From: a virus
Lineage: Duplodnaviria > Caudoviricetes
Reading direction: 5' to 3' (one strand)
IMG/VR virus record: IMGVR_UViG_3300006143_000006
Span: 1,512-65,511 of that record
Length of the DNA stretch: 64,000 nucleotides
In this document: positions 1 through 36,759 of the stretch, piece after piece
Position numbering within the stretch: position 1 is the stretch's first letter
How the letters are laid out: each line of letters opens with the position of its first letter
Notes under the pieces: model-generated
Database searches by the model: none
The model's input: only the letters and a program-made list of their open reading frames with translations
What the model was told of the DNA's origin: nothing
Translations under genes and position numbers: made by a program

Positions 1-1833
1 TTCACGGGCATTTTCCCATGCGGCTACATATGCGTCAGCGTCATACTTAAACCCTTCTGCATCTGGATTGATAATATCCGGGGATATAAACTGTACGAAT
101 GATTTAAAATCATCTGTACCAACTTTTCTCTGCTTATATAACTCATTTGCCTGGTTTGCAAATTCAGCCATGGAATTCCAGTCAGCGTCCTTATTCTCGG
201 ATTCAAATGCAGCCTTTACGCCGTCTACAGAACCGTCAATAGAGTTAATGGCTTGCTGTGCTTCTTCGGCAGATTGCACCAGTCCACTAAAGTAATCGTC
301 AAATACAGCTTTTTTGCCATCCCCAGTGATACCGAGGTCATTAAGGGTGATACCCATTTCATGAAGTGCGTCAGTTGCCTTTCCCCCAGATTTTACAGCC
401 TCTAGGAGTTGGTCTTTGATTGTATTGGATGTTTTGGAGCCGTTGAAGTAGGATTCAATTTGTTTTACTTGTTTTCCGGTTGGAGAAAGATCTATATTAG
501 TTACAGAATCTAATGCTTTTTCTAATTCTCTAATTTGGGCAGCATTTGCAGAGGGATCTAATTTTAAAGCATCAAGTTGGCTTTGGATAGTTTCCGAACG
601 GGAATCTATATCGGAGTAAAGTGTGTTGATAGATTCTTGATAACGTTTAAGTTCTTTTTCGGCTTCTTTTAATTCAATGTTTTTTCTAAAATATCCGTCA
701 TCCCAAATTGAAAGTTCAGATGTTTCTTCTTTTAATTTTACAATCTTTTCTTCTAAATTGGGTATCTCGGATTCATATTCTTTAATTAAAGCCAAATCTT
801 CTTTGAGTGCTTCGGTATCAGTTGATTTACCAACCTCGCCTTTAAATGTCTTCTCGCCTTTGGAATCACCCATTTTGACACTTTGAGCAACACTATGGTC
901 TTCTTTAGTCATTGCTTCTTTTGCATCATTGATGGCTTCTTGGGATTGGATAGCTAATAATCTCTCTTGTAATTGTATTTTCCGTTCCAGTTCAGCGTTT
1001 TGTGACTGTAAATTTTCTAACTCGGTTTCTTCAGCAACAGTAATAGTACCTGCGTCTTGTAATCCTTGTAATTCTGTAATACGAGACTGAGTTGTTTCTA
1101 ATTCAGAATTTAGAGATTCTAGATTAGACTTTGTATCTTGATATTTTTGTGAAGACTTTTGTAAAGCAGTGTTTGCCTCTTTATAGTCTATAGTTAATGC
1201 GTCTTCAAGTGCCACAGCAGCAACTGCAGCGGCAGACACCCATGTTAGGGGATTAGTGGCTAGTGTTGTGAATAGGTTTTTGGCGGAAGCGGCTATGCCA
1301 GTAAATATGTTTGGAAGGGTGGATGACGTTTGGTTCGCTGTTGTGCCAAGGTCGATGATGGAATCGGAGAGTCCATCAACAGAATTCAAGGCATCTAAAA
1401 CAGTTTGCTTATAATTATTTACGTTGCCGGAGTCTAAAACTGCTGACAATCTATTATGCATTTTATCTGATAGCTTACCACTTTCTAATAACTTTGTACC
1501 AATTTCATCCAAGTTGTCTCCAAATTCATTTACAGCTTTTCCCCAAGTTAATTTACCAGAGGCAACTTTCTGTGTGAATGTTGCGTCTTTTCCCATTGCA
1601 ATTAGTTCGGTTGTCAATGAATCAGTTAAACTCATAGTTGCAGCTTTAGCTTGTATTTGCGCTGTTGTAAATTCACTTAAACCATTAGTATTTATTTTAA
1701 ATTCTTTGTTAAGCAATTCAGTATGTATGTTTTGCATATCACTTAAAGAATTGTATCCTTTAAAAGTTCCTGCAAACATTTCATACAATCCATGACTTCC
1801 ATCAAAGTTAAATAGACTCCCTAAATCATTAAA
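1..1833 (-). CDS. Tape measure protein, predicted exon 2 (C-terminal part, runs off window)
   Basis: Manually checked stop-free minus frame from 1833 to 1 (611 codons, FNDLGSLFNFDG...ATNPLTWVSAAAVAAVALED...coiled coil); missing from ORF track because it runs off the edge; no RBS/start at its 5' end. Confidence 0.85.
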
Positions 1834-1918
1834 CTGCAAGTATATTTCATAATAATATTGGCTTTATCACATGAAATATGATATAATTTAGAAAATTTAT
1901 TTTACGAGGTGGAATATT

Positions 1919-2506
1919 ATGGCATTAGTTATTTGTCCCGAATGTAAAAAAGAGATAAGTGAATATACAGAGAACTGCCCTACATGTGGATTCCCTTTAA
2001 AAAATTTTATAGAAGAAAAAAATTTTTTTAATATATCTGGTGTATTAGTTTGTCCTAGGTGTGCAGAGATTTATAACGGTTGGGATTTAAAATATGGACT
2101 TCCACAACATTTAAAATGTGATTATTGTGATACCATTCTTGTTCAAACACAAGAAGATACAGAAACATTATATAAATTAAGTATATTAAAAGAAGATGAA
2201 GAAAAATATAAAAACGTATCAATTGAGATAGCGAAAAAATATGGAAATAATCAATTCTCTCAAGAAGAATACAATAAACGTGTTAACAAAATGAAATCTG
2301 ATAATGATGAATGGTTAAAACAGCATGAAAATAAAAATTTACAACAACAATTACAACCCCCAAGTACCTCTAAATGTCCCAAATGCGGTTCAACAGCGAT
2401 AGAAGCAACTCAAAAGGGATATTCCTTATTAACAGGTTTCATAGGTTCTGGTAAAACAATGAATTATTGTAAAAACTGTGGACATAAGTGGAAACTAGGG
2501 AAATAA
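1919..2506 (+). CDS. Zinc-ribbon protein (double Zn-ribbon N-terminus, C-terminal CPKCGS...CKNCGHKW ribbon)
   Basis: Multiple CxxC pairs; RBS GAGGTGG and TGaTATAAT extended -10 upstream (~1878-1887). Confidence 0.8.
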
Positions 2507-2518
2507 TATTTGTTTATG

Positions 2519-2546
2519 ATAACTGTGGATATGAGTGGTAGGAGAG
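2519..2546 (+). repeat. 28-bp direct repeat ATAACTGTGGATATGAGTGGTAGGAGAG (copy 1), encodes NCGYEW-stop
   Basis: Identical copy at 6216-6243; remnant of a zinc-ribbon gene 3' end. Confidence 0.9.
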
Positions 2547-2732
2547 AATAATCACAACTCAACGTAATGATTATAATGGTTTTTCTTAATAATATTATAT
2601 TGTTGGAGTAGTCTTTTTGCCTTATAGTATAAAGATAATATGATATAATATATAATAGTTTTTTTCTTCTTATTAACAGATTCGCCAATATAGTCTATTA
2701 TTATAATTTAAATCACCTCCTGGAGGAAAAGT

Positions 2733-3452
2733 ATGATTGATAAAAGAATAGAAGCACATGTACAATTTTTATGGGATAAATTTAATAGTGAAATTGAAGA
2801 AATTCCACATATTGAAAAAATTAATCTTGTAACCAATAATAAGTCTTGGGTATATTTCCCTATAGATGATTTATATAATCAAAAATATATAATGTATATT
2901 AATGATAAAATAAAAGAACAACCAAAAGAATTATTTGAACAAGTTTTATTTCATGAATTTGTACATATTTATGATTCAATAAAGTTAATAAAATATAATA
3001 TTAATGATTTTAAAAAATTAATGAATATATATTCTGAAATCCATGCGTCTGAAATTCTAATGGATAGATTACTAATTACACAAAATAAAAAACCATACAG
3101 ATTAGAAAACATTGTAATTCATAATGTCAGTATACCATTATATTCTTTCATGGAACAAACTGCTAATTCATTGAAAGAAGAATTTACTTTTAATAAACAA
3201 ACAATATTGAAACAGACATATAACTATAAATCAATATATTATTATATTGGATACATTTTGTCTTTAGAAAAACATGGAATTCAATACACATATAATTTTG
3301 AATATATTAATCGTTCATTGTCTGATTTATTATATAAAATACTAAATAGTTTTATTATAAAAAATTATACACCTGAATTACTAATTCAATATGAAAATGA
3401 TTTAAAGGGAACTATTTTGAATTTAGTAAAAGAAACATTGGGATTAGCATAG
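2733..3452 (+). CDS. Putative zincin-type metallopeptidase-like protein
   Basis: LFHEFVH (HExxH) plus downstream YSEIHA glutamate; GGAGG RBS. Confidence 0.6.
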   Translation: MIDKRIEAHVQFLWDKFNSEIEEIPHIEKINLVTNNKSWVYFPIDDLYNQKYIMYINDKIKEQPKELFEQVLFHEFVHIYDSIKLIKYNINDFKKLMNIYSEIHASEILMDRLLITQNKKPYRLENIVIHNVSIPLYSFMEQTANSLKEEFTFNKQTILKQTYNYKSIYYYIGYILSLEKHGIQYTYNFEYINRSLSDLLYKILNSFIIKNYTPELLIQYENDLKGTILNLVKETLGLA

Positions 3453-3703
3453 ATATTTTGTATATTATTCTGGGCACTATAATCGAACTTATGATAGTCT
3501 TAATACCCTTCACCTAATACCTTCTTCTTAAAAAGTTCGATAATTCTATAACATTCAGAATTACTAACTTGATTAGAATATAGTGTTCTTACAAGCATAT
3601 TGGCAATATAGTTTTCTTTTTCCATTTGTTTATTTACTTGCGCAACTGCATCGACCATATTAATATTGTTCATTTTTCACCAACTTTCTGAAAGGAGATT
3701 TTT

Positions 3704-4156
3704 ATGAAATTAGAACCTGATTGTGTACGTGATGTTTTACTATATCTTGAATCCCATTTAGAATATGTAGAAAGAAATGATCACGGATTAGAACATAATG
3801 AAATCAATTTTAGTTCAATTTCTGATGCCTTATTACAAGAACATAATTATAGCAAAGATTCTGTTAATTATGCTATTGAAAAACTATTGGAGGTAGGATT
3901 TATCACCTCTAACAAGCAGGTATATGGAAATAAAAAAACTATTCTTTCTTCTCCAATTTCTGATATTACATGGAGTGGACATCAATTCCTAAACAACATA
4001 CGCAAACAATCTATTTGGGATGCAACAAAATCTGGTGCCAAAAAGATTGGTGCTACTTCTATATCTGCTTTCAATATGATTGCAATGGAAATTGTCAAAA
4101 CTATTGTAACAAAACCAGAGGTAATAAACAGTATAATAAGCGAATTTCATCTTTAA
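3704..4156 (+). CDS. DUF2513-like winged-helix protein
   Basis: MKLEPDCVRDVLL start and ITWSGHQFLNNIRKQSIW motif typical of DUF2513; AAGGAG RBS. Confidence 0.8.
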   Translation: MKLEPDCVRDVLLYLESHLEYVERNDHGLEHNEINFSSISDALLQEHNYSKDSVNYAIEKLLEVGFITSNKQVYGNKKTILSSPISDITWSGHQFLNNIRKQSIWDATKSGAKKIGATSISAFNMIAMEIVKTIVTKPEVINSIISEFHL

Positions 4157-4223
4157 TATGGAATTAACACCTGTTGTATAGGCGGTATAATAAGTGTTTA
4201 CACATGAAGTACAAGGAATAATC

Positions 4224-4265
4224 TACTGTGCTAATTGTGGACACACATGGAAACCAGGGAAATAG
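4224..4265 (+). pseudogene. Remnant 3' end of a zinc-ribbon gene (YCANCGHTWKPGK-stop)
   Basis: Matches C-terminus of 1919-2506 ([13 protein letters not shown]-stop); no intact upstream frame. Confidence 0.75.
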
Positions 4266-4365
4266 TGTGGCATTGGCTTTATAGAATGAAAAATTTTATT
4301 TGTTGTAAAAATTAGCAACTTATAGAGTATAAAATTTGATTATTTAAAGTTAGTGGGAATACAAT

Positions 4366-4390
4366 AAAAGACACCAGATGGTGTCTTTTT
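4366..4390. terminator. Bidirectional intrinsic terminator
   Basis: AAAAGACACC-AGAT-GGTGTCTTTTT between convergent genes. Confidence 0.8.
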
Positions 4391-4396
4391 GTAACA

Positions 4397-4783
4397 CTAT
4401 TTTGTAAAATTTAAAAATGGAAGATTTAATGGTTTCATCCCTGCCTGTGTTGTTATCAAAGATATTATAGGTCTTGCATATGATAACAAAACTGTAGGAG
4501 CATTTATTTCTAATAATTTATCAAAAGATATTCCTTGAATTTCTCCGTCTAATTTAAAATGTGCGCCAATTATTAAGTTTATAAAAAACGGAAATTCAGA
4601 AGAATCCTCACCAATTTTGATTTCTAATTCTACAACCGCTTCATTAGTGCTTTTTTTATCAATATTATTATTTAGAGACACGTTTAAAATATCATTTGAG
4701 ATATTAGCATTGTCACCATTTTTTATTTCAAAATCTAATTTGACTAGTTTAGGATTTGAAAACTTAAAATTACTTTTTTCCAT
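4397..4783 (-). CDS. SecB-like chaperone
   Basis: INAPTVLLSYARPIISLITTQAGMKPLNLPFLNF is the SecB-family C-terminal signature. Confidence 0.85.
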   Translation of the reverse strand: MEKSNFKFSNPKLVKLDFEIKNGDNANISNDILNVSLNNNIDKKSTNEAVVELEIKIGEDSSEFPFFINLIIGAHFKLDGEIQGISFDKLLEINAPTVLLSYARPIISLITTQAGMKPLNLPFLNFTK

Positions 4784-4801
4784 TTTTATATTTCTCCCTA
4801 C

Positions 4802-5449
4802 TTATGCTGCATATAATATCGCTTTATAATCATCTAGTTCTTCAGAATTCATATTATCGTTTGTTTCGTATTCGATTTCAACCTCTGCTTGGAAAGAAAT
4901 TTTAGTGTCTGAATTTGTAATATTCATTGATAATTCTTCATACGCTTTATAAAAACTTTGTAAAATTTGTTCGTTAGAAATTGTCAAATCAAAAATGTAT
5001 TGTTCAAAATTATTTTTATCAAAGAGATGGAGAGGTAACGTTAAAGAAACAGAAGAATTTTTTATTTTGTTAATATAATCAGTTAAATACTCTTTCATTT
5101 CCAGATATTGATCATTTAATGGTAATTCATCCTCATCAATATCATTATATTCAGTGAGAACATAATTTATTTCTTTTTCAAAGGGTTTATTCGCAACTAT
5201 AACAGATTTGTTTTTATACACACTAAGAACGGTACATTCGTCATTTATAACATCTAATAACTCATTATTTGATATTTTTACAATAATCCATGATTCTTCA
5301 TCAATTATATCGTCACATACACATAAATATCTACTCTTATTCTTATCAATACATACAAATATAATAGGTATATTTTCAAAAGAAAACAGTTCTTCTTCTA
5401 AATATAACGTTCCTATTTGTGGTACGTTTTTAAAATACTCATTACTCAT
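4802..5449 (-). CDS. Putative antitoxin (DUF6575-like N-terminus, acidic tail)
   Basis: FSFENIPIIFVCIDKNKSRYLCVC motif; probable ATG at 5449 overlaps upstream stop; sits between toxin-like and SecB-like genes. Confidence 0.55.
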   Translation of the reverse strand: MSNEYFKNVPQIGTLYLEEELFSFENIPIIFVCIDKNKSRYLCVCDDIIDEESWIIVKISNNELLDVINDECTVLSVYKNKSVIVANKPFEKEINYVLTEYNDIDEDELPLNDQYLEMKEYLTDYINKIKNSSVSLTLPLHLFDKNNFEQYIFDLTISNEQILQSFYKAYEELSMNITNSDTKISFQAEVEIEYETNDNMNSEELDDYKAILYAA

Positions 5450-5909
5450 TATAATTTTCCTCTTTATACTGCTCACAAATTTCAAAATTATTTTTTATTT
5501 TTTCAAAATTTCCTTTATAAATCCACCAATCGACATGATCTTTATCTTTATAATTAGGTATACGATCTTTTGTCAATTGGGATAAACCACATATAGTATT
5601 TCCGTGAATTAAAATTGGATGTGGATACTGTTCATGATACCTTCTCTTAATAAAATTTAAAAACTTTTCAGGGGATTTAGGAGAAAGATAACATGAAGTA
5701 GAATATAGACCTATTTCATCAGGACTTTTCTTACTTTTTCTATCTTCATATTGATATTCTTCATAACTACACCAAAACGTTGATTCATTAATTATACCGC
5801 TTTTTGAAACCCGATATACATGTTGTTCATTCTGTTCTTTACCATTTCTGTAAATATCTTTAATTAACTCTTGTGGTATACAATCTGCTAAGTTAGACCC
5901 TCTATCCAT
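5442..5909 (-). CDS. Putative ADP-ribosyltransferase-fold toxin
   Basis: VYR ... STSCY ... HVDWW pattern resembling the R-S-x ART fold; first gene of a coupled triad. Confidence 0.55.
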   Translation of the reverse strand: MDRGSNLADCIPQELIKDIYRNGKEQNEQHVYRVSKSGIINESTFWCSYEEYQYEDRKSKKSPDEIGLYSTSCYLSPKSPEKFLNFIKRRYHEQYPHPILIHGNTICGLSQLTKDRIPNYKDKDHVDWWIYKGNFEKIKNNFEICEQYKEENYNE

Positions 5910-6094
5910 ATTTTCTTCCTTTGTTTTTAAATTTACTATTATATTATAAAGGTAAATAATGGAAAAGTCTATACAAACATATATTCGATTTTATACCATA
6001 AATGTCAAAAAGTCAAGATTTTATTGTTTATTGAACGTAATAACTTAGCAGGAATCTTCCAAAATAATTTACTGGACGTTATGAAGAGACACAA

Positions 6095-6238
6095 ACTCCC
6101 AAATGCTCAACATGTTAGTCAACTAACATAAAAAAGATATTGACAACATAAAAAGTAGCAAATACAGCATTATTTGGATTATTTGGGACTAAGAGACATA
6201 AAACATTCCACTGTAATAACTGTGGATATGAGTGGTAG
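6095..6238 (+). pseudogene. Decayed zinc-ribbon gene 3' half
   Basis: TPKCSTC*STNIKKILTT*KVANTALFGLFGTKRHKTFHCNNCGYEW-stop, two in-frame stops. Confidence 0.8.
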
Positions 6239-6243
6239 GAGAG
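6216..6243 (+). repeat. 28-bp direct repeat (copy 2)
   Basis: Identical to 2519-2546. Confidence 0.9.
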
Positions 6244-6289
6244 TGAGAGTAGTAAGATGGGATTCGTTCTTGAATCTCATCTTACTACT

Positions 6290-6982
6290 TTAGTACATAA
6301 TCTTATTATTCTTTTCCATTAATGAAATTAATTTACTATATTGCTTGGCAGATAAAATTCTTTGCAATTGATGTGTTTCTGCTAAAGATAAATTATTTAA
6401 TGTGATATTAAAAAGATAAATCATTATTGCATCAAATTGTTTGGTAAGATTAATTAAATCAGTGTGAACTTGATTGATAAATTTACTATCATTTTTTAAA
6501 ATTGTTTCCAAGAATCCAATTCCTTGATTGTTAGTATTTTTATCATGAACATCATTAGAATATTTTGCATAATACGTATATATGTATTCTAAGTTTTCGT
6601 TTTTAACACGAATGGAGTTATTTCTCAATTTTAAATCATCTTTTATATGTCTGTAGCTTGTTTTGTTTATTTTATCAGCAGAATAATTAAAACAAATAGA
6701 ATATAAAAACTTTAATAACTGTTCGATAGAATATCTCATGCAACCATTTATACCTATTCCGTCATTTACAGGGAGATATATCAATATCTTATTCAAACCC
6801 CATTTATATCTTTGTAAGAATAGTATATTTTCTTGGTTTATTTCAATATTTGAATATTTTAAATATATGTCTGTTAAAATATTATTTTTACATATAATGT
6901 TATAAACATCGTTATATAAGGTGTGATATTTTGAAAAAGGGAAATATTTATCAACAAATTCTTTATATTCACAATTCTTCAT
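6290..6982 (-). CDS. Hypothetical alpha-helical protein, possibly HEPN-like
   Basis: RYSIEQLL and YAKYSNDVH segments resemble degenerate HEPN motifs; start overlaps upstream stop. Confidence 0.45.
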   Translation of the reverse strand: MKNCEYKEFVDKYFPFSKYHTLYNDVYNIICKNNILTDIYLKYSNIEINQENILFLQRYKWGLNKILIYLPVNDGIGINGCMRYSIEQLLKFLYSICFNYSADKINKTSYRHIKDDLKLRNNSIRVKNENLEYIYTYYAKYSNDVHDKNTNNQGIGFLETILKNDSKFINQVHTDLINLTKQFDAIMIYLFNITLNNLSLAETHQLQRILSAKQYSKLISLMEKNNKIMY

Positions 6983-7373
6983 TGCTCCCCCTTCTATATT
7001 TGTTCATTATATCAGACATATAGTTACTTTTCTTTTTCTTTTTCTTTTTTGTTTGTTGTTCATTAGATGAGGAATTTTCTTTCATTTCTAACTTTTTTTC
7101 TAGTGTATTGATATATAATTGTATTTGTGATTCGTCAGCTTTTTCAATATTACGTAATATTTTTCCTAACATCGTTGTTCTGCTTTTCAACAAATATGGT
7201 TTATAACTAATTTTTAATTCTTTTAAGAAATCAGCAATATTTACATTTAAAGGAAATTCTTCCTTTGACAGAATAAGGTCAACTACAATTCCATATAATT
7301 CTAATTTGATTAGTTCAAGATCTGATGTTTTTTTAATGTGTGTTATCCGTTTTATTATTACTTTTTTGTTCAT
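6969..7373 (-). CDS. Hypothetical protein with basic C-terminal tail
   Basis: 134 aa ORF overlapping both neighbours; KKKKKKK tract. Confidence 0.6.
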   Translation of the reverse strand: MNKKVIIKRITHIKKTSDLELIKLELYGIVVDLILSKEEFPLNVNIADFLKELKISYKPYLLKSRTTMLGKILRNIEKADESQIQLYINTLEKKLEMKENSSSNEQQTKKKKKKKSNYMSDIMNKYRRGSNEEL

Positions 7374-8229
7374 TATATTTATTTACCTCTCTTTCAAATT
7401 CATTACTAATCTCTACTATATTATTCTTCAAAGCTTCGTCTTGTCTATCTATAATGAATTTAGATAATTGAGATGTAATCATTTTTTCTGATTTCATAAA
7501 GTAATTTTCAAATATGTAAATATTTTTATTAGATAAAGCTTCCTTTATTTGAAGCATATTATTTTGAATTCCAGCTTTATACCCATTAGGTATTTTTGTA
7601 AATATTATGCCTAGATTATCTAATGGTTTGCATTGAAAATTCGCTTTATATGTGTTTTTAGCATGTTTTACAACTTCTTCTAATAAATCAACACCTAATA
7701 AGGAATATGCATCAGGCACAACAGGAACGATGTATAAATCACATGCAAAAAAGGTTGCAATCGTATAAAAAGAATAAGTAGGAGGACAATCTATAAATAT
7801 GTAATCATATTTTTCTTTTAGATTATTATCTTCTATAAAATTATTTAATTTTTGTTCAGAAGCTCCGCTTCCAGTTTCCCTTTCCATAAATATAGCATGT
7901 AATTCACCCGGGATAATATGTAAATTATTATCTAACTTATAAATAGTTTTTTCCAAAGTTACTTGTTCAAGCCTACCAGAACTTTGAGAAAAAATATTCT
8001 CAATAGATGGGAGATGTCTTGGTTCTGTTATAATTTTATCTTCTTCATGTCCTAATACATTGTATCTCTCAAAAAAGGATTGTGTACAGTTTGATTGTGG
8101 ATCCATATCTATTATTAATATCTTTTTTTTATTTATATTAGATAAGCACAGTGCAATTTCTTTACACAATGTTGTTTTACACACACCACCCTTCATATTT
8201 AAAAACGCTATTATGTTCCTTTTTTTCAT
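7333..8229 (-). CDS. ParA/MinD-family ATPase
   Basis: Deviant Walker A KGGVCKTT, IDMDPQSN, Walker B FIDCPP. Confidence 0.9.
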   Translation of the reverse strand: MKKRNIIAFLNMKGGVCKTTLCKEIALCLSNINKKKILIIDMDPQSNCTQSFFERYNVLGHEEDKIITEPRHLPSIENIFSQSSGRLEQVTLEKTIYKLDNNLHIIPGELHAIFMERETGSGASEQKLNNFIEDNNLKEKYDYIFIDCPPTYSFYTIATFFACDLYIVPVVPDAYSLLGVDLLEEVVKHAKNTYKANFQCKPLDNLGIIFTKIPNGYKAGIQNNMLQIKEALSNKNIYIFENYFMKSEKMITSQLSKFIIDRQDEALKNNIVEISNEFEREVNKYNEQKSNNKTDNTH

Positions 8230-8915
8230 TTGTATTATCCTCCTTGCGACCTTACAGTGTAATTGTACTATATTGTATCTGCTATTTCAATAATAAATAA
8301 GGATGAAAGATGAAGAGGAGATGAGAGGATATGGTAAAACACTTAAGGGGTTTTTTTATCTATAATTTAATGTAGGAACTTGAAAAGTTACATAAGAGTT
8401 AGTATTGCATATTTTTATAAGATTGATCACATCATTTTTTTGAATCTGACCATGTTTATAAGATTTTTTACAATCTTCAGAAGATAAAGGACATTGAGTG
8501 TTCTCTTTACGGGCTACGTCCATAATTTTTTTGAAAAGCTCTTTCGGAAAAAGTGATCTATTATATTTAATTCTATAATAATCACCTACTTTTCAGTTAT
8601 AAAAAGACAGACAATGTAGGTGTCTTTTAGAGTGCTTTTTATCAGCTTAATCGTTAAATTGTTTTTATACCATTTTATTTATATTATTCTGAATATGTAT
8701 CGTCTGTTAGAGAAAACTGCTACTCGATCATCTTCTTAACCATATAACCCACCGACAGAACCATTCCTTGGATTTGTCGAAATTAAAAAAATATGTCGCA
8801 ATATTCCTTGGCATATGTTATAATATAAAGGGTTTCTCAATAGTAGGTGAGTGAGGAGAGCAGTGGTTCTCCCTATTCGCTTACTATTTTTATTATGAAA
8901 TAGGAGAGTACACAA

Positions 8916-9512
8916 ATGAAAAAATACCTACATAAAACCAACAAAAATCATTATTTTTCAGTAAAATTCATCAACTATATTTGTCTGTTCACATTTATGT
9001 TAATGTTAATTACTGGATGTTCTGGCAAAGAAGAAAATTTACAACAAAAGGTTGATGATTTAACTTCACAATATGAAGAACTACAAAAAGACCATGAAAC
9101 TCTTAATGAAGAATATAAGAAATTGCTGTCAGACTATGAAACATTGCAATCTGAAATAGAGAAATACCAGGATCAGCAAGCTACGATTGATGACCTAAAT
9201 AGTAAACTTACAGAATTACAAAATCAAAATAATGCCTTACAATCTGAAAAAGAATCATTAGCTTCTCAAGTATCAGCATTACAAACAACACAATCACAAA
9301 ACAATGATTCATCAGGAGGCAATGGATGGAGAGTTTCAGGTGTGATTTCAAATTCATCAGATGACTCAGGAGCTACGGTATGGCTATCGGAAACAGGAGA
9401 TAAATATCATAGTATAAATAACTGTGGACGTATGAATCCTAACAAAGCCAGACAAGTATCCCAATCATCAGCAGAAGCTAGTGGGTATGGAAGATGTAGC
9501 AAATGCTTTTGA
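8916..9512 (+). CDS. Putative lipoprotein: coiled coil plus C-terminal Cys/His metal-binding domain
   Basis: Signal peptide with LITGC lipobox, heptad repeats, VWLSETGDKYH...C...CSKC tail. Confidence 0.75.
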   Translation: MKKYLHKTNKNHYFSVKFINYICLFTFMLMLITGCSGKEENLQQKVDDLTSQYEELQKDHETLNEEYKKLLSDYETLQSEIEKYQDQQATIDDLNSKLTELQNQNNALQSEKESLASQVSALQTTQSQNNDSSGGNGWRVSGVISNSSDDSGATVWLSETGDKYHSINNCGRMNPNKARQVSQSSAEASGYGRCSKCF

Positions 9513-9782
9513 TTTAAAAAAATGTGCGAAACTCATATTATTGAGACAGATATTAGCATAGGTTTAAACCATAGTATGATACAATGCAATATTTATGATA
9601 TATCTTATCAAGAACATCAGCTTCTTGAGAGTATACGTCCTGAGTCAATATGGGGGACTAAAAATATAGCAAATTCTATAGTAAACTATTCATTAAATTT
9701 ATAGAAGATACAGTTCAAAAATACGCAGTAACTGCAACGGCAGTAATATTTAATAATTTAAAAAAATCCATAAAATATAAAA

Positions 9783-9817
9783 GTTAATCCTCGTGCATTG
9801 AAAGCACGGGGATTAAC
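9783..9817. terminator. Strong hairpin terminator (T-tract on minus strand)
   Basis: GTTAATCCTCGTGC-ATTGAAA-GCACGGGGATTAAC flanked by A/T runs. Confidence 0.8.
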
Positions 9818-9873
9818 ATTTTCCACTTATTAAGTTGTTTATAAATTCTATAGCAACATATTGTTATCAATTT

Positions 9874-10041
9874 CTACAACACAATACACTGATATCTTCT
9901 CTTATCCGAATATATTCTCAGTAGTTCATCCAGAGTATCAGAATTATTACCATAAATTTCATCATAGATCTTGGAATATAATCCAGACTTATCTATTACC
10001 AGAAGCCTCCAGGTATTGTCGTTAAATTCAAAATGATTCAT
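9874..10041 (-). CDS. Small hypothetical protein (55 aa, MNHFEFNDNTWRLL...)
   Basis: GGAGGTG RBS before ATG; below ORF-track cutoff. Confidence 0.4.
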   Translation of the reverse strand: MNHFEFNDNTWRLLVIDKSGLYSKIYDEIYGNNSDTLDELLRIYSDKRRYQCIVL

Positions 10042-10196
10042 AATACACCTCCGAATATCTTTGATGTGATTATGATATCATAGTGGGTGTAGAGAAATCT
10101 GGACAGTGGGAGAAAAACTAATAATAAAAGAAAGAAATTGTTACAATTTGTTTTATTAAACTATATATAATTTCAACAATTTCTTTCTTTGATTAT

Positions 10197-10664
10197 TTAT
10201 CGTCTGTTTTTTCTTTCTTTTTTATTTTTTGGTTTTACACTGTTAAAATAATTTTCGTCTATTTTTGAAAAGGAATATTGTGTGATGAAAAACAACATAC
10301 CTAACAATTCAACAATAGTTGCAGAAATATAGTATTTAAGAAAATTTAATAGAGAAGATGTAATTGAAGTAGATAACTTATTAAAATTAGTATAATTTAC
10401 AATAATAGAAACAATTATAAATCCGATAATTAAATTAAAAACTATCAATTGAAAAACTATCAATCCTCTTATGAAACCAACAATTTTATCTCTCAATGCT
10501 TGTTTCTGTTTTTCTGCGTTAAAAAATAATTCATTAAAATTATCGATTTCTTTATCTTTATCTTTGCCTTTGAGATAAGATATAGGAGTTTGTTTTGTTG
10601 ACATCTCCTTTATGTAAATATCAAATAATGGATTATTAGACATTAGTATTTTACTCCGGTACAA
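10197..10664 (-). CDS. Two-TM membrane protein
   Basis: Hydrophobic segments LIVFQLIVFNLIIGFIIVSII and YYISATIVELLGMLFFI; overlaps upstream peptidase stop. Confidence 0.7.
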   Translation of the reverse strand: MYRSKILMSNNPLFDIYIKEMSTKQTPISYLKGKDKDKEIDNFNELFFNAEKQKQALRDKIVGFIRGLIVFQLIVFNLIIGFIIVSIIVNYTNFNKLSTSITSSLLNFLKYYISATIVELLGMLFFITQYSFSKIDENYFNSVKPKNKKERKNRR

Positions 10665-11277
10665 TAATTTTATCTAAGATGTCATCATAATATGGTATTT
10701 TTAAAACTTCTAATCTACCTCTCATGACTGAGATTGAAACCTCAAAAATTTCTGCTAAGGCTTTAATAGAAGGTTTCATTAATCGATTTATTATATTATT
10801 TAAAGAATGTTTTGGGATTAATAATTCTCCAGCAAATGTATTTGCTTCAATTTCTTTAACAGAACCATTATTTGAATTATTACGAAATTCAATATATCCA
10901 TCTTGTAAAGAATTTCCATGGAGACAACAATGACCAAGTTCATGTGCAACGGTAAATCTTCTCCTATGTAATGAATCTGTTTCTTTATAAAATATTCCAA
11001 CATCGTTTCCGTCTAATAATACTAGGCCTGAAATTTCACCAAGATTTTTAAACTCTTCACTTTGTTCTAAATAATCAAAACTTGTTCCTACCTTTTTTAT
11101 CTTGAGATTGTCAAGAATAACATCAAGATTTACAGGTACTTGATTTAACTGACCAGTTTTTAATAAAATGGTTTCTGCGGACATTTTATTAAGTTTGTTT
11201 AATGTTTTACACATATAATCACCATCCATCCTAAGTAAAGCTTTTTGATATAAATAAAAATTCATATTTTTTGACAT
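10651..11277 (-). CDS. ImmA/IrrE-family metallo-endopeptidase
   Basis: RRRFTVAHELGH (HExxH) and EIEANTFAGELLIP, C-terminal HTH-like segment. Confidence 0.9.
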   Translation of the reverse strand: MSKNMNFYLYQKALLRMDGDYMCKTLNKLNKMSAETILLKTGQLNQVPVNLDVILDNLKIKKVGTSFDYLEQSEEFKNLGEISGLVLLDGNDVGIFYKETDSLHRRRFTVAHELGHCCLHGNSLQDGYIEFRNNSNNGSVKEIEANTFAGELLIPKHSLNNIINRLMKPSIKALAEIFEVSISVMRGRLEVLKIPYYDDILDKIIVPE

Positions 11278-11584
11278 AACCTATTCCTTTATATAAATAA
11301 TATAAAGAAGTATATCATTTTAAAATATAAAATTATATCAAAAAAGGCAAAAAAAATAAAAGATATAACTACATATCATAACACAGATATAATGTCTTCG
11401 TCAATATATTCTTTTTTTCTAATAATATCTTAGCATAAATTGCAAAATTTGTAAATATTTTTTTGATAAAAAATACTTGACAAACTATATGAAAAATAGT
11501 ATATAGAACCTTTATTTATAAATAAGCATGTTTTATGTAAAATGTCAAGAGATTTTTTTTGTAAAATATTAAATGTCAAAATTA

Positions 11585-12033
11585 TATTTCCCATGCCAAT
11601 AACGGTTGGGAACACACCGGACGGCTTACCGTCATCTTGTTATTTTATCTTGGACTATACATTACAAGCAAATGTAATAAGGTTTACATTTGCTCGGAGG
11701 AACGGTAGTCTCTGAACGTCCCACTATATCATATAGATATGTTGGTGCGCTGCTGATCAGTTAGTCGGATATACATTACATATCCTTTGCCCTTACGCTA
11801 GGTACTTAGGAACATCTCCCGATGTCTTTTTTTCACCATATACCATCTCGCTAATTTTTTCTGCTTTCGCCGCATATCACGCTTGCCGTTTCCAGCTACG
11901 TTGTAGCTTAACGAGCATTAGGCTTCCCAGCAATTACTCCTCCAGTTTGAGAACATGACACCACACGATTGTCCATGACACCATTTTCGTCACTTTCTTT
12001 CATATGGATTAGACCAGTTTAATAATAAAACAA
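11585..12033 (-). ncRNA. Group I intron catalytic core
   Basis: P AATTGCTGGGAAG (11935-11923), Q GATCAGCAGCG (11758-11748), R GTTCAGAGACTA (11717-11706), S ATGTATAGTCC (11662-11652); P3 GGAGGAG/TTCCTCC; 12-bp P8; P9 GACGG-TAAG-CCGTC. Confidence 0.92.
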
Positions 12034-14085
12034 ATCTAGGTTCTTAAAGAATGATACAGCACCAATAGTGCCTAATGATGCAGGTATTCCATTCCCCACA
12101 TCTAAAATGTTTGTTAAAATATCTAAAAATGCTGTTCCAGAGTCAATAACGCCTTTAAAAAGATCAGAACTTAATGTTGTATTAGATAGATTTTGAAAAG
12201 ATGCTTTGAACTGTTGTATTTTTGCTTCTATAGATTCTAGCCAACGTTCTTGCTCTTGCATAGCAGAACCTTCAGCATTTAATGTAGCTGCATATGCCTT
12301 TTGTACTTGCCCAGATTGAAATGCCTGTATAACAGCAGCACCTTGATTACCTCTATTTTTTCCAAACATTGTTTCAAGTAGATCTGCACGTTTTGTCTGA
12401 TCTAACTGATTCCATACTTTAGACACATCTTCTAAAATATCATAGTAATCTCTGAACTTTGTTGGGTCAGCTGAATCCATGATATTTACTTGACCTTTAG
12501 TAAGATTAAGAATGTGTGTTTGTATTTTACTAACAGACTCTAAACCTTCTGATTCTTCACCTAAGGCCTCCAAATCACCTTTCATACCTTGAATACGCAT
12601 CTGTCCAATCTTAAGAGCGTTTCCTAATTCTCCAGCAGATTGAGTGATTTCTGCTCCACCTGTAAGCATTGCAAGAGCTTTGTTCAGATCTGTCCCACCT
12701 AATGACATCATAGATGCTGCATGTGACATACCCTCACCCAAATCTTTAGCTGAGGTGGCGAACTCATTTCCAAGTTTATTATATTTGTCAACAATGGATA
12801 ATGCATCATCATACTGAATATCATAAGCCTTCATGACCGTCACAAGGTCGCTAACAGCAGTTTTATCATCAACTTCTCCAACATTAGAATAAATCGAACT
12901 GATTTTTGCTAAATTAGCACTAGAATCCATAGAATATCCTAGTTTTGCCCATTCACTTGTTTGAGTAATATATGAGGATATATCACGTCCTACATCTTTA
13001 GCTGTTTTCCCTGCATTACTTAGGAATTTATTGTATTTGTTTGAAGTCTCATCTGTGACTTTATACAAATTTGTCATGGCAGTATCGATATCAATGACAG
13101 CTTGCGCCATTTGTTTTGTAATATCAACACCGTTTTGTAGTACACCATAAACGCCAACAAACTGTCCGATTTGGCTGAACCCTCTCTTCATTTCAGTCCA
13201 AAAACTATTCCCCACGGCACCTTTTTCCTGGGCAGTAGAAACAATGGCTTTAAATTGTTTATTGTAATCTGCTAATTCTTCAGAACTTGTTGCAGATTTT
13301 TGTTTGTTAGCCAACTCAGTCAACGCTTCTCCAAATTCTTTTGCAGCTTTTGTATTATTATTTAGCCAGGTAAGCGTTTTGTTAGAAGAAGTAGTAGCAT
13401 CCAAAATGCTAAAAGGTTTTCCGATAAGTTTAATTTCATTATTAAATTTCTTTGCTGCTTCAGATAACTTATTAAATTCTGAAATAAGATTATTGTCAGA
13501 TAATTCACTTGTTTTATTAAAGTGCTTTGATATTTTAGAATATATTTTTTCGTATTCATCAGCATATTGTTGAAGTTCTTGATTATTTAAATTAGAATAT
13601 TTCTCTAATTTGTTCTGAATACTATTTCTTTGCGCTTTGTAATCACCTAATTCAAACTTTCTTGAAAATTCAGCAATCTTTTTCTGTTGTTCGTCGTAAA
13701 TTTTATTTAGTGCTTGTTTTTCTTTTTCAATAGCGTTTTGATTAGCTTTAGCACCACTAAATGCAATTTTATTTGGAACATTATAATCTTTTTCTAATTT
13801 TTTTGCGTCTTTTACAGCATCTTTGTACTTTTGAAAATAATCATCGTAATTAAATTTTACTGATTTAATACCTTGGTTAAAATTTTTCCCAATGTTTTGT
13901 CCAGTTTTCATAGCAGTAGTATTTAAACCAGACATCTGTTTTTCTAAAAGTTTACCAAGATCAGTACCATCACCAGATAATTTTACGTCTAGTTTTATCT
14001 TTTGATTCTTTTGTAAATTTTTTAACTGAGCTTCTACTTTACTGGTATCTAATACAGCTTGTATTTGTGCAATAAAGTCTGACAA
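12034..14085 (-). CDS. Tape measure protein, predicted exon 1 (684 codons; unspliced ORF stops at 12019)
   Basis: TP901-type TMP motifs (IDTAMTNLYKVTDET, EWAKLGYS, GTDLNKALAMLTGGAEITQ); ends at ...FFKNLD before intron P1. Confidence 0.9.
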
Positions 14086-14179
14086 ATAATCACTCCTTTA
14101 CATACAAAAAGCAGAAGGATCAACGACAAAATGCCAATTCTTCTGCTAAATAAAATTATATATTAATTTTTATTATGTT

Positions 14180-14623
14180 TTATAAAAATTTATAATGTGG
14201 TTTTTCTTCGCCGAACAACCAATAACGCAAATAATCATCAAGCACAATTGCTAAAAATGATATAAAGAACCAGATTATAGAAAAAGGTAAACAAATTTGT
14301 CCTAAAATATTAAAAGGTAAATCGCTATAATCCCATACATTCCATTTAAAGATAAGGTTTACAATAATCCCTGTTATAAATTCTAATGTCGTAATAATCA
14401 TAGTTCCAATTAGCATTTGCTTATATATCAGCATATCCCATTCAATATGTTCATTAATGCGTCCAATGAGATAAAACGCCAAACCTCCTACAATAACCAT
14501 AGACCAATGAGTGTATCCTCGATATATAATTTCAATGAGTGAATAAATTAATCCACCTATAGTTATAAGGATAAACGGTTTAAAAACACTGGATTTATGA
14601 GAAAATCGAATTTTCACTACCAC
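14180..14623 (-). CDS. Putative membrane protein (phage-associated 'putative ABC permease' / CmpB-like family)
   Basis: EIIYRGYTHWSM...WDYSDLPFNILGQICL motifs, 4 TM segments. Confidence 0.8.
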   Translation of the reverse strand: MVVKIRFSHKSSVFKPFILITIGGLIYSLIEIIYRGYTHWSMVIVGGLAFYLIGRINEHIEWDMLIYKQMLIGTMIITTLEFITGIIVNLIFKWNVWDYSDLPFNILGQICLPFSIIWFFISFLAIVLDDYLRYWLFGEEKPHYKFL

Positions 14624-14640: not shown

Positions 14641-15636
14641 TTACACAATATATTTTTTATGATTATATTGAACACTATCTTGTGATATTTTTGCATAAAT
14701 CATTGTAGTATCAATTTTTGCATGTCCTAACATTGCTTGAACATCAGTTATATTCATCCCTCGCTTTAATGCATCTGTGGCAGTAGTATGACGAATTAGA
14801 TGCGGATATAAATTTCTGCCAATATTAGAACGTTTTCCGATAATTCTGACAATTCTTTCTATACCTGTCTTGCTTAAACGTTGATAAGGTTTCCTTTCTG
14901 ACACAATAAGAGCATTATTATCATCGTTTCTTGTATGTAGATACTTTTTTAAATACACTTCCGATTTCGCATTTAAGTATGATGTGCGATGCTTGTTACC
15001 TTTGCCAAACAAAAACACTTCTCCAGATTTAAAATTTATATCACTTTTATTTAAATTTACCATCTCTGATACACGACAACCAGTGCTATAGAATAACTCT
15101 ATAATTGCTTTTTCTCTCAATGTAATACAACTATAACGAACTAATTCAAGTTCTATATCACTTAATGGTTCTCGTGGTTTTTCTTCATATTTAATAGGTT
15201 GTATCTGGTCACAAGGATTCTTTTTTATATATTCCTCGTTTTTGCACCATTCGAGAAAAGTATGTATTACTACACGTTTTCCATCCAAAGAATGATTTGA
15301 TATATTCCTACGTTTCTGAAGATTATATAAATAAACTCGTATATCGTTTGTTGTTATCTGATCCAGAGGTTTTTCTATATACATAAAGAAATCTCTGAGA
15401 TATAAATCGTAAATTTTTAATGTACCTTCACTAAGACCTTCTATTCGCTTGGAAATTAAGTATACCTTATAACATGATGGTATAATATCATTATAAGACA
15501 AAATGTCCGTACTCTTGCCTTTGATATCATAATCATTTGAAAATATTTCTAATTCTTGTAATACTAATTTTAAATCTTCATTATTTAGTTTTCCGTTTAA
15601 TTTTAATATAAATTCCTTCGCAAATGTATTAGTCAT
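14641..15636 (-). CDS. Tyrosine recombinase (XerD-like with SAM-like N-domain), candidate cassette invertase
   Basis: TGCRVSE, GKGNK, HLIRH, LGH...Y catalytic residues. Confidence 0.92.
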   Translation of the reverse strand: MTNTFAKEFILKLNGKLNNEDLKLVLQELEIFSNDYDIKGKSTDILSYNDIIPSCYKVYLISKRIEGLSEGTLKIYDLYLRDFFMYIEKPLDQITTNDIRVYLYNLQKRRNISNHSLDGKRVVIHTFLEWCKNEEYIKKNPCDQIQPIKYEEKPREPLSDIELELVRYSCITLREKAIIELFYSTGCRVSEMVNLNKSDINFKSGEVFLFGKGNKHRTSYLNAKSEVYLKKYLHTRNDDNNALIVSERKPYQRLSKTGIERIVRIIGKRSNIGRNLYPHLIRHTTATDALKRGMNITDVQAMLGHAKIDTTMIYAKISQDSVQYNHKKYIV

Positions 15637-17350: not shown

Positions 17351-18073
17351 TTACTTAGCATCCTTTGATTTAGATGCGCCAGAAACAGATTTCTTTCGAT
17401 TAGATTTTGGCAATGTGGATTTCATTTCAATAACATTTTTCTTGTGATTATCACTTTTAAGATATTTTTCGGTAACTAGTTCAGCTAATTTACCAAAATC
17501 CATTTCTTCATTCAACATCTTCTTATTTAATGAAGCAGTTTCTTCTGGAGTCATATAGCTCATTACTTTTTCTCCATAGTTATTTTGGTTGATTTGCTGT
17601 AATAACATTTTATTTTCATTTTGTGCAATTTCTAGTTTAAGAACTTCTAACTGCTTCTGAACCTCCAAAATTTCTAACATTTTGTTATTAAATACTGGAT
17701 TATTGTGTATAATTTGTTGCTTTTTAAATTCAACCATATCAATTACATCGTTCATAATAGAGTTAATTGTTTCAATCATTTTATTACTAGAAGAATCTTT
17801 TTTTAGATTAGTTGATAGGGTAGTAGTATATAATTCAACAAGTTCTTCATCAGCACAGACAGACTCGTATACTTTCTCATTTTCACCGAATTTAACTCCT
17901 TCAACACAATATAAGAAGAAAATAGTAGTCAATGCAGAATCGATCATATATGGAGTATATGTTAAAGAACCATCATCATTTTCTGTAAAATAAGAATCGA
18001 CAAGATGATTTGTAATAATTGCTCTTTCTTCCATAGTAATAAATTCCTTAATCTTTACATCTGTTTTAACCAT
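17351..18073 (-). CDS. Phage hypothetical protein (tail-region)
   Basis: 240 aa ORF with GGAGG RBS in late operon. Confidence 0.6.
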   Translation of the reverse strand: MVKTDVKIKEFITMEERAIITNHLVDSYFTENDDGSLTYTPYMIDSALTTIFFLYCVEGVKFGENEKVYESVCADEELVELYTTTLSTNLKKDSSSNKMIETINSIMNDVIDMVEFKKQQIIHNNPVFNNKMLEILEVQKQLEVLKLEIAQNENKMLLQQINQNNYGEKVMSYMTPEETASLNKKMLNEEMDFGKLAELVTEKYLKSDNHKKNVIEMKSTLPKSNRKKSVSGASKSKDAK

Positions 18074-18160
18074 TTAAAATCCTCCGATTCATATATAATA
18101 AAAAAGGATCCGTCTATGACAGATCCCTAGCACCTTCATACTTTAATATTTATTGTTCCG

Positions 18161-18406
18161 TTATTTCAGAAATTCCTCAATTTCTTCCAAACTCTTTCCA
18201 GATGAAATCAACATTTCAGCAGCTTTCTGTATCTCTTCTTGTTTTCTTTGCTTTTCTGCGTAAATCTCATATCTGACTTGATCTTTCTTTAACTGTTTCA
18301 GATTTGCTTTTTCCTGTTTCAACTCCGCAGATAACGATTCGATTCTTTCTTCAGATTCCGCGATTAATTCTGAATAATTTTTTTCAACAACTTTCCTTCT
18401 TGCCAT
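18161..18406 (-). CDS. Small coiled-coil protein
   Basis: GGAGG RBS, heptads. Confidence 0.6.
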   Translation of the reverse strand: MARRKVVEKNYSELIAESEERIESLSAELKQEKANLKQLKKDQVRYEIYAEKQRKQEEIQKAAEMLISSGKSLEEIEEFLK

Positions 18407-33337: not shown

Positions 33338-35038
33338 CTAATGTGAATATAGTTTTGGTTTACGTGCTAGAGCAGTGAGCGAGGAGACATTGGTATTTGT
33401 CTTGGATTTAACAGCACTGCAATATTCAGTAATATAAAATATTAAATAACTTAATGCAGAAAAACGGTCTTTGTCTAATTTTTTCACGACTTTTTCAACT
33501 GACAATGCACCATTGGTCATATGTTTCAATTTTAAATTTGCGATTTCTTCAAATAGTAAATCTGTTTGTATATAAGGTAATACTTTTAGGTCAATATTTT
33601 GATTATCCTTATGTGTAAAATCTGAATCTTGCTTTTTTTCTAGCAGTTTCAGTTTTCCGCCTTCCACGGAATCTATAAAATCTGTTACAACCTTACTTTG
33701 AAAATGCTGTGCCTTCATATCAAATAAACACTTTTCTGCATCTTTTATTTCTGGTTGATTATCAGTATTCATAGTATTCCAACATCCTAAATATTCGCCA
33801 GTAATAGGGTCATAAGATTCTTTCAAAAGTTCATCAATCAACCCTGCGCCCAAGCCATTACCATCTGCGATAACTGCTTTTGCTAAGAAGTTTTTCTTTG
33901 TTTTTTTAACAAGACAAGCCTGTGCAGAAAAATTTAATACGTTAGAAACGGTCATAATATTTGGAATTTCTATAGACACAATACGATTTGATTCTTTGTT
34001 CCTTATAACTCGCCCAACAGCAATAGAAGATTGATTGTTAGTTGCTTTTTGACTACGAGCAACGTCAACACCAAGATAAAATTCTTCATCCAGCTTATTG
34101 TAATTTATCATAGGCGTTGTTAGAGATCTACAATTCATCAACTTATTAATATCTACTAATGCATCATTAGAAGAACCAACCCATCGAGATTCATAGTTTT
34201 GTGCAAAAGCAATTGGTGACATTTCCTTTTTCTTTTGTAATATTTGACTTTTTGTGCTTCCACGCCCATACCAACATGCCAAAAACCACGATGAACCAAG
34301 TACAATTTCTCCTTTAAGGTTTGCCATATTATTTAGCATACGAATACTTCTTTGGAATTCGTCACTTCCTCTGAACCCAGAAGTTGTAAAAAAGTTGATT
34401 TGTTGGTTTAATTCCTCTGGATTTACAACTGCTAGTTTGCCAATTGTGTATCGTGGAACCTCTGGAATTGGTTTTAAGACATCCTGATATAATACATCGT
34501 TTAACAAAGCAGATTCTTCTATGTTAATTCTTTTACGCCTTTGCCCTTTCGATTGTTGGGCGTTAGCAAGCACATCAATTCTTCCTCCCGATTTAAAACG
34601 AACTTCTGCATCATTTTTAGAAAAACTTGTTCCAGATTTAATTGTGCCACCCATCAGTTCATTTTCAAGCATTGGGTAAAATTTAATGATTTCTAATGTC
34701 TTATCTTTTAATAATTCAGCAGCGTTTTCTTTTGTTTGAGCTGTTAATGCAAGGGTAATATCTGAAAATCGAATAGCGACAATAAACATAGCCAGAACTT
34801 CATCAAATGTTTTACCATAACCTCTAGGGAAAACACCATATATACTACAAAACCTTAAAACAGACCTAAGATATATTCTCTGATCCATGTGTAACTTTAT
34901 TCCACCAGATTCAGGCGTTATTAGATTTAAAAATAAATCAGGATACCAATTTGTCCAACTTGCGAATTCTACATACTTATATAAATTTCTGCCAAATACT
35001 GAGTCATCTTGGAGATTAATAATTTGTTCTTTTGTCAT
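33338..35038 (-). CDS. Terminase large subunit
   Basis: Walker A PRGYGKT, Walker B INIEES, nuclease LGVDVAR and DKDRFSAL. Confidence 0.93.
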   Translation of the reverse strand: MTKEQIINLQDDSVFGRNLYKYVEFASWTNWYPDLFLNLITPESGGIKLHMDQRIYLRSVLRFCSIYGVFPRGYGKTFDEVLAMFIVAIRFSDITLALTAQTKENAAELLKDKTLEIIKFYPMLENELMGGTIKSGTSFSKNDAEVRFKSGGRIDVLANAQQSKGQRRKRINIEESALLNDVLYQDVLKPIPEVPRYTIGKLAVVNPEELNQQINFFTTSGFRGSDEFQRSIRMLNNMANLKGEIVLGSSWFLACWYGRGSTKSQILQKKKEMSPIAFAQNYESRWVGSSNDALVDINKLMNCRSLTTPMINYNKLDEEFYLGVDVARSQKATNNQSSIAVGRVIRNKESNRIVSIEIPNIMTVSNVLNFSAQACLVKKTKKNFLAKAVIADGNGLGAGLIDELLKESYDPITGEYLGCWNTMNTDNQPEIKDAEKCLFDMKAQHFQSKVVTDFIDSVEGGKLKLLEKKQDSDFTHKDNQNIDLKVLPYIQTDLLFEEIANLKLKHMTNGALSVEKVVKKLDKDRFSALSYLIFYITEYCSAVKSKTNTNVSSLTALARKPKLYSH

Positions 35039-36219: not shown

Positions 36220-36759
36220 ATTGCCACCATCCTTTCATTTTTAAAATTATTTGTATAATATTAACAAATTTATATAAATTGCTTGTAGACACTTGTCTTT
36301 TTGATTTAATGGTTTTATAATAAAAAGTATAAATTAGAAATTATATATAATGTTATTTAATGAAAGGAGAATAAGTATAAGTGAAAAATGAATTTAAATA
36401 TGGTTATTATAGGGATTCATAACATTGATTAACATTATATTTTTGGGAGAAATAATATTATTTTTGTTAGGATTGATTGGAGGTGTTATAATTGTTAAAA
36501 TATTTTGTAAAGACATAAAACATGATTTTAAAATGAGAATTGGAAAGATTTTTGAAATTTCTATTAGTGTTCATGATAAAAAGAAATAAAATTTTGTGAT
36601 TAAAAAAATATTCAATAGGCTGTGAAAATATGATTTGAAAACTTCTATTTTCCACAGCCTATTTTTTAAACAAGTTCAATAAAAATTCAATGAAACAATT
36701 CATTCAAGGCAGGATAGGGTAGTGGTTATACAGCCACTACCTTTTCTGTACTCTTAACT

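Follow-up and report, generated by a model that had tools for sequence, protein, structure and literature searches.

The DNA analyzed here (the window) is a stretch of 64,000 nucleotides (nt) of the Caudoviricetes record IMGVR_UViG_3300006143_000006, positions 1,512 to 65,511. Its subject is the predicted group I intron that splits the tape-measure protein (TMP) gene of this phage, together with the accessory genes and the repeated pieces of a zinc-ribbon gene (ZnR) that the intron carries. The source genome is a single contig of 65.5 kb with 30% G+C, of which the window leaves out only the initial 1,511 bases, and the phage was detected in mouse-gut metagenomes of nine studies. Megablast searches of window positions 1-6300 and 6300-14200 against GenBank phages returned zero relatives, and no close relative of the window was present in IMG/VR and GTDB. 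TMP relatives, with hosts in the Lachnospiraceae, were retrieved from these two databases and carry L numbers below; the closest of them, L001, has 62% identity in TMP and 85% in the intron core.

The split tape-measure gene and its intron

The TMP gene lies on the minus strand and is divided in two as follows.

1-1836, minus strand: TMP exon 2, matching phrog_4211 and continuing past the window start
12033 to 1837, minus strand: predicted group I intron of 10,197 nt, ribozyme core at ~11590-12033, terminal G (omega-G) at 1837
12034-14085, minus strand: TMP exon 1, matching phrog_4211 (E=2e-71)

The open reading frame (ORF) at 12019-14085 covers positions 527-942 of phrog_4211 and the ORF at 1-1839 covers positions 956-1368. 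Unsplit TMPs from other phages align to the last residues of exon 1 and then carry on, and the TMP reading frame of nearly all relatives ends at the same position as that of the window.

Judged by its sequence and predicted pairings, the TMP interruption is a group I intron. At the 5' splice site, exon TAGAT pairs with the guide GTCTA to form P1 with the U.G pair expected there, and exon 2 CAGTTTAA pairs with TTAAACTG to form P10, the guide segments of the two helices being contiguous. P10 covaries between L008 and L004. The classical R and S elements of the group I core are present (GTTCAGAGACTAC and TGTATAGTCC), and RNAalifold applied to five cores gave 59 consensus pairs, 24 of which include a compensatory change. 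The omega-G stands just ahead of the predicted 3' splice site, and joining 12034 to 1836 yields an open frame that reads FFKNLD up to the junction and QFNDLG after it; the predicted spliced frame is open in L001 as well. The Rfam model RF00028 (Intron_gpI) scored 11.2 bits (E=3.7), below its gathering score of 50, and Rfam at gathering score returned nothing across the region. RF00028 misses many bacterial and phage subgroups.

Predicted splice sites were also placed in five relatives (L001 11699-19116, L004 12100-17763, L008 10831-16285, L009 13390-18804 and L011 12663-17310). In L004:12040-12110, and likewise in L008, L009 and L011, 38 extra nt follow the codons of the exon 1 end (..KNFD) and contain a small hairpin and a second CCTAGAT copy of P1. 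Splicing after this second copy, as predicted from P1 and P10, would place a TAG in frame at the junction. TMP exon 1 of relatives also has insertions, 0.5-1.9 kb long, near residues 439, 498 and 576 (L009:11510-12796; L011:10784-12070; L010:10769-12311 and 12717-13195; L008:8097-10000). One of them encodes a 345-residue ORF (L009 11588-12625), and L004 has no insertion at residue 498. These insertions are probably additional introns with endonuclease genes.

The zinc-ribbon gene, its remnants and the cassettes

The cargo of the window intron consists of ~10 kb of accessory genes in a peripheral loop, and the loop can hold up to ~9.7 kb and a dozen genes. From the 3' splice site inward, the loop contains the features listed here.

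1858-1887, plus strand: ZnR promoter (element E), with TTGGCT and a TG-extended TATAAT spaced 18 nt apart, 10/12 matches plus the TG
1919-2506, plus strand: intact ZnR, antisense to the intron, with its C-terminal domain (C-domain) at 2354-2506, matched by a C-domain hidden Markov model (HMM) at E=2e-20
2519-2546, plus strand: remnant 1, a 28-nt island made of NCGYEW and its stop codon (2521-2541) plus GAGAG, with unrelated DNA in both flanks
2547-4216, listed on the plus strand: cassettes A1 and A2; A1 has an M76-like gene (2733-3452), A2 a 57-residue gene (3500-3673, minus strand) and a DUF2513 gene (3704-4156)
4217-4265, plus strand: remnant 2, the final 48 nt of a ZnR gene, with YCANCGHTWKPGK and a stop codon at 4224-4265
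4272-4314, plus strand: E', the ZnR promoter region again, in decayed form (repeat D6)
4315-6091, minus strand: cassette B, a PD-T4-9/CmdTAC-like triad (4397-5909) with a terminator (4366-4389)
6092-6243, plus strand: remnant 3, a decayed ZnR C-domain ending in HCNNCGYEW and a stop codon, with a hairpin after it (~6249-6289)
6290-11589, no strand assigned: deeper cargo, with a ParA-like operon (6290-8229), a lipoprotein gene (8916-9512), a 55-residue gene (9874-10041, homolog in L001), a membrane protein gene (10197-10664) and a Peptidase_M78/ImmA-like gene (10651-11277)

This arrangement is also found in an independent assembly. Run X11, which belongs to another study, yielded an 11.5-kb contig that has window positions 2373-11906 with 12 differences and thus reproduces the arrangement, which is therefore not an assembly artefact. 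Contigs from runs X16-X18 are short, near-identical pieces and were uninformative on structure.

The N-terminus of the ZnR protein matches Pfam Zn_ribbon_3 and DZR. The N-terminal parts of ZnR proteins are unrelated or variable in alignment A1, with conservation limited to the C-domain, and the ~150 nt of C-domain DNA plus its terminator are the only sequence common to otherwise unrelated cargo sets. Atlas neighbours of ZnR are hypothetical phage zinc-ribbon proteins. Pfam and NCBIfam searches of ZnR and 17 homologs gave generic zinc-ribbon matches and no nuclease domain. ZnR was considered as a nuclease or homing endonuclease and rejected as such, as it has no LAGLIDADG, GIY-YIG, HNH, His-Cys or PD-(D/E)XK domain.

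An antisense ZnR adjoins the 3' splice site in L001, L004, L008, L009, L011, L014 and L016-L023. A DNA pattern for the PKCPxCGST knuckle located 114 more IMG/VR loci, with the domain present in 91; 40 of the loci also have a TMP homolog in the part covered, and there ZnR is always on the opposite strand. Between the TMP halves of five GTDB contigs (L019-L022 and L026) lie 1.2-1.4 kb in which ZnR is the sole recognizable ORF. These contigs were used for gene order only; their inserts were blank in both the core HMM and Rfam searches, and ribozyme-core homology to the window was not demonstrable. In L010 (16773-17237) and L024 (16592-17071), a ZnR homolog stands in sense with TMP directly ahead of the second TMP part, an orientation opposite to that in all other relatives.

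The preliminary description of this DNA, made from the letters of the window, had reported the end of ZnR at 2506, the NCGYEW piece, the remnant at 4224-4265 and a decayed gene copy further in, and all of these coordinates hold in the sequence. Across all six frames, the 64 kb has three matches to the motif C..CG[YH].W, each on the plus strand and within the cargo, and 60 Markov-1 random windows had none. The 28-mer reported at 2519-2546 and 6216-6243 was confirmed and proved to be the sole exact direct repeat of at least 20 nt in the window. The decayed copy (6092-6238) was likewise borne out, with a C-domain HMM match at 6092-6235 (E=1e-17) interrupted by two in-frame stops; its HCNNCGYEW ending is that of the intact ZnR of L009. 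Remnant 2 is more diverged, positions 4217-4264 being 75% identical to 2458-2505 (repeat D3). Cassette B was recognized through PADLOC (PD-T4-9_C, E=9e-12) and Pfam SecB.

The same description had noted a repeated element at 1857 and 4272 and placed it at the intron 3' end. The repeat is real (1857-1899 and 4272-4314 are 72% identical, with an identical 11-mer at the start), but it is the ZnR promoter and not a structural element of the intron 3' end. In L001, the homologue of element E lies between two tandem intact ZnR genes, away from the intron end. A second X11 contig (record 2) has the 3' end of a ZnR, then 17 nt, then element E. Because L001 and X11 record 2 show this junction of ZnR end and E, remnant 2 and E' (4217-4314) are best read, from the sequence, as the relic of a tandem ZnR-ZnR junction. 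In the window, the promoter overlaps the intron 3'-terminal hairpin (1842-1879), and this DNA therefore has two uses.

Related phages contain comparable series. A search with the ZnR C-terminal HMM, as the preliminary description had proposed for the window and its relatives, found one or two intact ZnR genes and, further inside the cargo, at most three C-domain copies that are truncated or interrupted by stops: two in each of L002/L003, L004/L006, L008 and L149, three in L009 and L033, and one in L011. Every copy is co-oriented with the intact gene, including those in 18 of 18 multi-copy IMG/VR loci. The truncation points range from HMM position 17 to 39, which argues against a fixed recombination site. 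Hairpin terminators directly follow remnants in L004, L008, L009, L011 and L033, as well as at window 6249-6289, and tandem intact ZnR genes are found in L001, several IMG/VR loci and X11 record 2. In L009:15838-18308 and L008:13476-15833, a sizeable ORF lies upstream of several remnants, with its stop codon immediately before the remnant or overlapping it; in L009, for example, a 258-residue ORF (17532-18308) precedes a C-domain at 17380-17529. In some cassettes, a variable N-terminal part may originally have been fused to the ZnR C-domain.

Breakpoints in related cargo and the proposed exchange

Breakpoints fell within the C-domain in four comparisons: L004 with L011, L004 with L009, the window with L037 and the window with the X11 contig. 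L004, L009 and L011 are 98-99% identical phages with block-wise differences in cargo, each differing block having one end 209-240 nt inside exon 2 and the other at a ZnR remnant. Between L004/L011 and L009, high identity stops within a remnant ending in CNNCKSDF and a stop codon (L004 14320, L011 15146, L009 15873). The coding part of this remnant is homeologous between the versions, and full identity runs from the stop codon and terminator GACTAGAAATAGTCTC. Where L011 has its intact ZnR, ending in CKNCGHTW and a stop codon, L004 has a 54-codon, 5'-truncated hybrid remnant; toward the splice site, L004 also has 3.2 kb of different cassette and a different intact ZnR, which constitutes a stacked end state. 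The L004/L011 junction passes from unrelated sequence to ~75% identity from the KCPxC codons and to 100% from mid-domain through the stop codon and onward. Junctions graded in this way, from unrelated to ~75% to 100% identity, are as in homeologous recombination. L008, of another lineage, has only a 62-nt island in common with the L004/L009/L011 group, and this island is a remnant with its terminator.

In the metagenome contig L037 (3,244 nt; 88% identity to the window), the counterpart of window 3512-4241 is followed immediately by that of 6210-8268, so that cassette B (4242-6209) is missing. The junction is at the first Cys codon common to remnant 2 on the left and remnant 3 on the right, with a shared ACTGT. 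L037 also contains a decayed internal ZnR fragment between A1 and A2. The 28-mer is 100% the same at both window positions and at L037:1193-1220, with flanks 88% identical between window and L037. Chance conservation of 28 nt at that divergence has a probability of ~3%, and selection or recent conversion could account for it. The X11 contig has 465 different letters in place of window positions 1897-2372 and a divergent exon 2, parts of which are replaced, with the break at the first CxxC knuckle of the C-domain (2372/2373); X11 joints with one side of at most 26 letters (e.g., 4740>7213 and 5515>11313) were treated as artefacts of AT-rich repeats. Altogether, ZnR C-domain and terminator DNA makes up ~5-8% of the cargo but contains about 5 of the 10 internal break ends (rough binomial P ~6e-4). 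The architecture, these breakpoints and the graded identities can be read directly from the alignments.

These comparisons point to general, mismatch-tolerant homologous recombination at the ZnR C-domain as the probable process by which intron cassettes are exchanged, stacked and deleted. Two intron-bearing phages or prophages would meet, and general recombination would begin in homologous TMP DNA, in exon 2. With mismatches tolerated, resolution would take place where homology next occurs, in an intact ZnR C-domain or in the remnant of one. Because one crossover would lie in exon 2, the 3' splice site would move with the exchanged block. If a donor remnant recombined with an intact recipient ZnR, the ZnR and cassette or cassettes of the donor would be placed on the splice-site side, and the recipient ZnR would be turned into a 5'-truncated hybrid remnant. 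Pairing between two co-oriented islands of one genome would delete the intervening cassette, and occasional illegitimate joins may make new remnants such as remnant 1. Such recombination needs a short run of exact identity, and the two fully identical 28-mers agree with this. From the alignments we infer both this pathway and the direction of single events; cassette loss occurs besides gain.

Several of the ideas that had led to these comparisons can now be judged. The claim that remnants mark cassette boundaries was upheld, as the breakpoints in relatives' cargo fall in remnants far beyond their 5-8% footprint, and cargo that is invariant across related phages, which had been named as a finding that would count against the idea, was not what we saw: cargo differs between related phages. 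The claim that recombination at ZnR swaps and stacks cassettes is supported by the stacked state of L004/L011, but some indels lie off the remnants. The anchor had been placed at the ZnR 3' end; it is indeed in ZnR, but consists of the whole ~150 nt of C-domain DNA and the terminator, beyond the last codons. In agreement with the proposed absence of an own integrase, no recombinase is encoded in the cargo (1837-12033), but the integron likeness of the locus is an analogy only.

A number of observations weigh against recombination at the C-domain as a full account. The independent events counted are few. Two indels are outside ZnR DNA (1.39 kb at L011 15321-16708 and 267 nt at L004 13053), and the L008/L033 break (L008 13749) is ~180 nt away from a remnant. 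A looser C-terminal motif scan found zero remnants past 6243, leaving 6290-11589 remnant-free. At least some joins are illegitimate, because remnant 1 has unrelated DNA on either side. The difference between window and L037 may be either a gain or a loss of cassette B, and among the phage ORFs scanned there was no single-strand annealing protein, just an SbcD-like exonuclease.

Part of this evidence is shared with an account in which the remnants mark past events and do not guide them. ZnR would be duplicated in tandem and decay, and cassettes entering by random illegitimate joins would survive best in the dispensable copy. The tandem intact genes of L001, several IMG/VR loci and X11 record 2 agree with this, as do the variable truncation points and the resemblance of remnant 1 and of the remnant 2/E' junction to illegitimate joins. 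Random joins do not give homeologous stretches followed by exact identity, nor do they explain a single 62-nt island of remnant plus terminator with unrelated flanks in different genomes, or an indel of cassette B with both ends in remnants and a shared ACTGT, and we regard such passive accumulation as unlikely. Targeted breakage or site-specific recombination at the C-domain or terminator, by ZnR itself, the product of a cassette gene or a tyrosine recombinase, would explain why break ends cluster at the first CxxC knuckle (X11 2372/2373, the start of similarity in L004/L011, the L037 fragment) and again at the stop codon and terminator. Phage exchange boundaries elsewhere are reported to have nuclease genes (PMC10448857), and a tyrosine recombinase is encoded at 14641-15636, outside the intron and 556 nt upstream of the TMP gene. 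It has no homolog near TMP in L001, L004, L008, L009 and L011, however, and the ZnR matches are those of a generic zinc ribbon. The terminator hairpins differ in sequence among lineages, no common inverted-repeat site was seen, and an island of homology by itself gives clustering at domain edges, all of which makes a dedicated breakage activity highly improbable.

It is also conceivable that remnants are retained for a function, the ZnR stop codon and hairpin serving as terminator or insulator for the upstream gene and blocking antisense read-through of the intron. The hairpins right after remnants in five relatives and in the window, and the 28-mer that is fully conserved between window and L037 despite 88% identity in the flanks, are consistent with such a role. 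Remnants 1 and 2 have no adjacent terminator by scan, and termination leaves the graded identity of the junctions unexplained; we therefore hold little confidence in this explanation, which is compatible with homologous recombination at the C-domain. More tentatively, the C-domain and terminator might be a selected, reusable cassette linker and the intron an integrase-free platform for capturing defence and accessory genes, with ZnR kept for docking homology or as a protein that promotes breaks or exchange.

Likeness to known systems and other loci of the phage

In orphan module arrays of Rhs and CdiA genes, modules are displaced by homologous recombination in conserved core-coding DNA. Such arrays have a single intact gene at a fixed end and truncated copies in the same orientation. 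In each copy, part of the conserved segment survives and leads into its own downstream module, and recombination in that segment brings in new modules and displaces older ones. The intron cargo likewise combines an intact gene with co-oriented fragments and has junctions inside the conserved segment (L004/L011, L009/L004 and window/L037). What is conserved in the intron cargo is the C-terminal end of a small ZnR gene, whereas in Rhs and CdiA arrays it is the 5' core of a toxin gene. Where those arrays have toxin tips with immunity genes, the intron has unrelated accessory and defence genes in either orientation (an M76-like gene, DUF2513, the CmdTAC-like triad, the ParA-like operon), and the whole array is enclosed by a group I intron that splits a structural gene of the phage.

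The module theory of phage mosaicism reportedly goes back to Susskind and Botstein, and relaxed homologous recombination at short linkers in phages is known from work on Rad52-like recombinases. There, too, diverged phages exchange at short islands of homology beside non-homologous modules and leave homeologous junctions. The linker in the present case is a recurring gene fragment that builds up as a scar array, and the exchanged block extends across a splice site into the beginning of an exon. Integrons resemble the locus in their variable, ordered cassette array, their repeated boundary elements and the newest entry at one end. They differ from it in that the locus has no integrase, attI or attC hairpin consensus, its cassettes have their own promoters and lie in either orientation, and its boundaries are coding remnants with variable truncation points. 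Site-specific recombination of the integron type was rejected because integrase, attC and attI are all lacking: there is no IntI-type recombinase beside the array and there are no attC repeats of common architecture.

Some group I introns, such as T4 td, encode a homing endonuclease in a loop, and their flanking exons are co-converted. Like them, the window intron interrupts an essential gene of the phage, carries an ORF in a peripheral loop and has adjacent exon sequence that is co-exchanged. It differs in that its resident ORF is antisense with no recognizable nuclease domain and in that the loop, at up to ~9.7 kb, holds a dozen genes. The pattern thus appears to work like linker-mediated phage mosaicism and the Rhs/CdiA orphan arrays, with a resemblance to integrons in layout only. 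No description of this pattern of ZnR scars was found in the literature searched, and the cargo-laden intron itself is a more unusual object than the scar pattern.

If cassettes are exchanged as proposed, a very large accessory load, including the CmdTAC-like triad, would diversify within the intron of an essential tail gene with no dedicated recombinase, and the scars would be a readable record of past exchanges. The linker model predicts that cassette exchange can be tested, or blocked, by recoding the linker. Additionally, an antisense ZnR C-domain between TMP halves can be used as a search key for intron cargo islands in gut phages, and more than 40 further loci came from it.

Elsewhere in the window, the match to the terminase large subunit spans just part of ORF 33338-35038 (region 33338-37569), and ORF 36760-37569 matches a homing-endonuclease PHROG. 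Like the TMP gene, the packaging genes at 33338-37569 may be interrupted. A tRNA-Tyr (40142-40224) adjoins a transposase-like ORF (40909-41964, phrog_506) and an integrase (42165-43118). At 46851-52595, the SbcD/Mre11-like exonuclease (phrog_284) is encoded beside a 925-residue protein with no assigned function, and the two may be a phage recombination nuclease pair.

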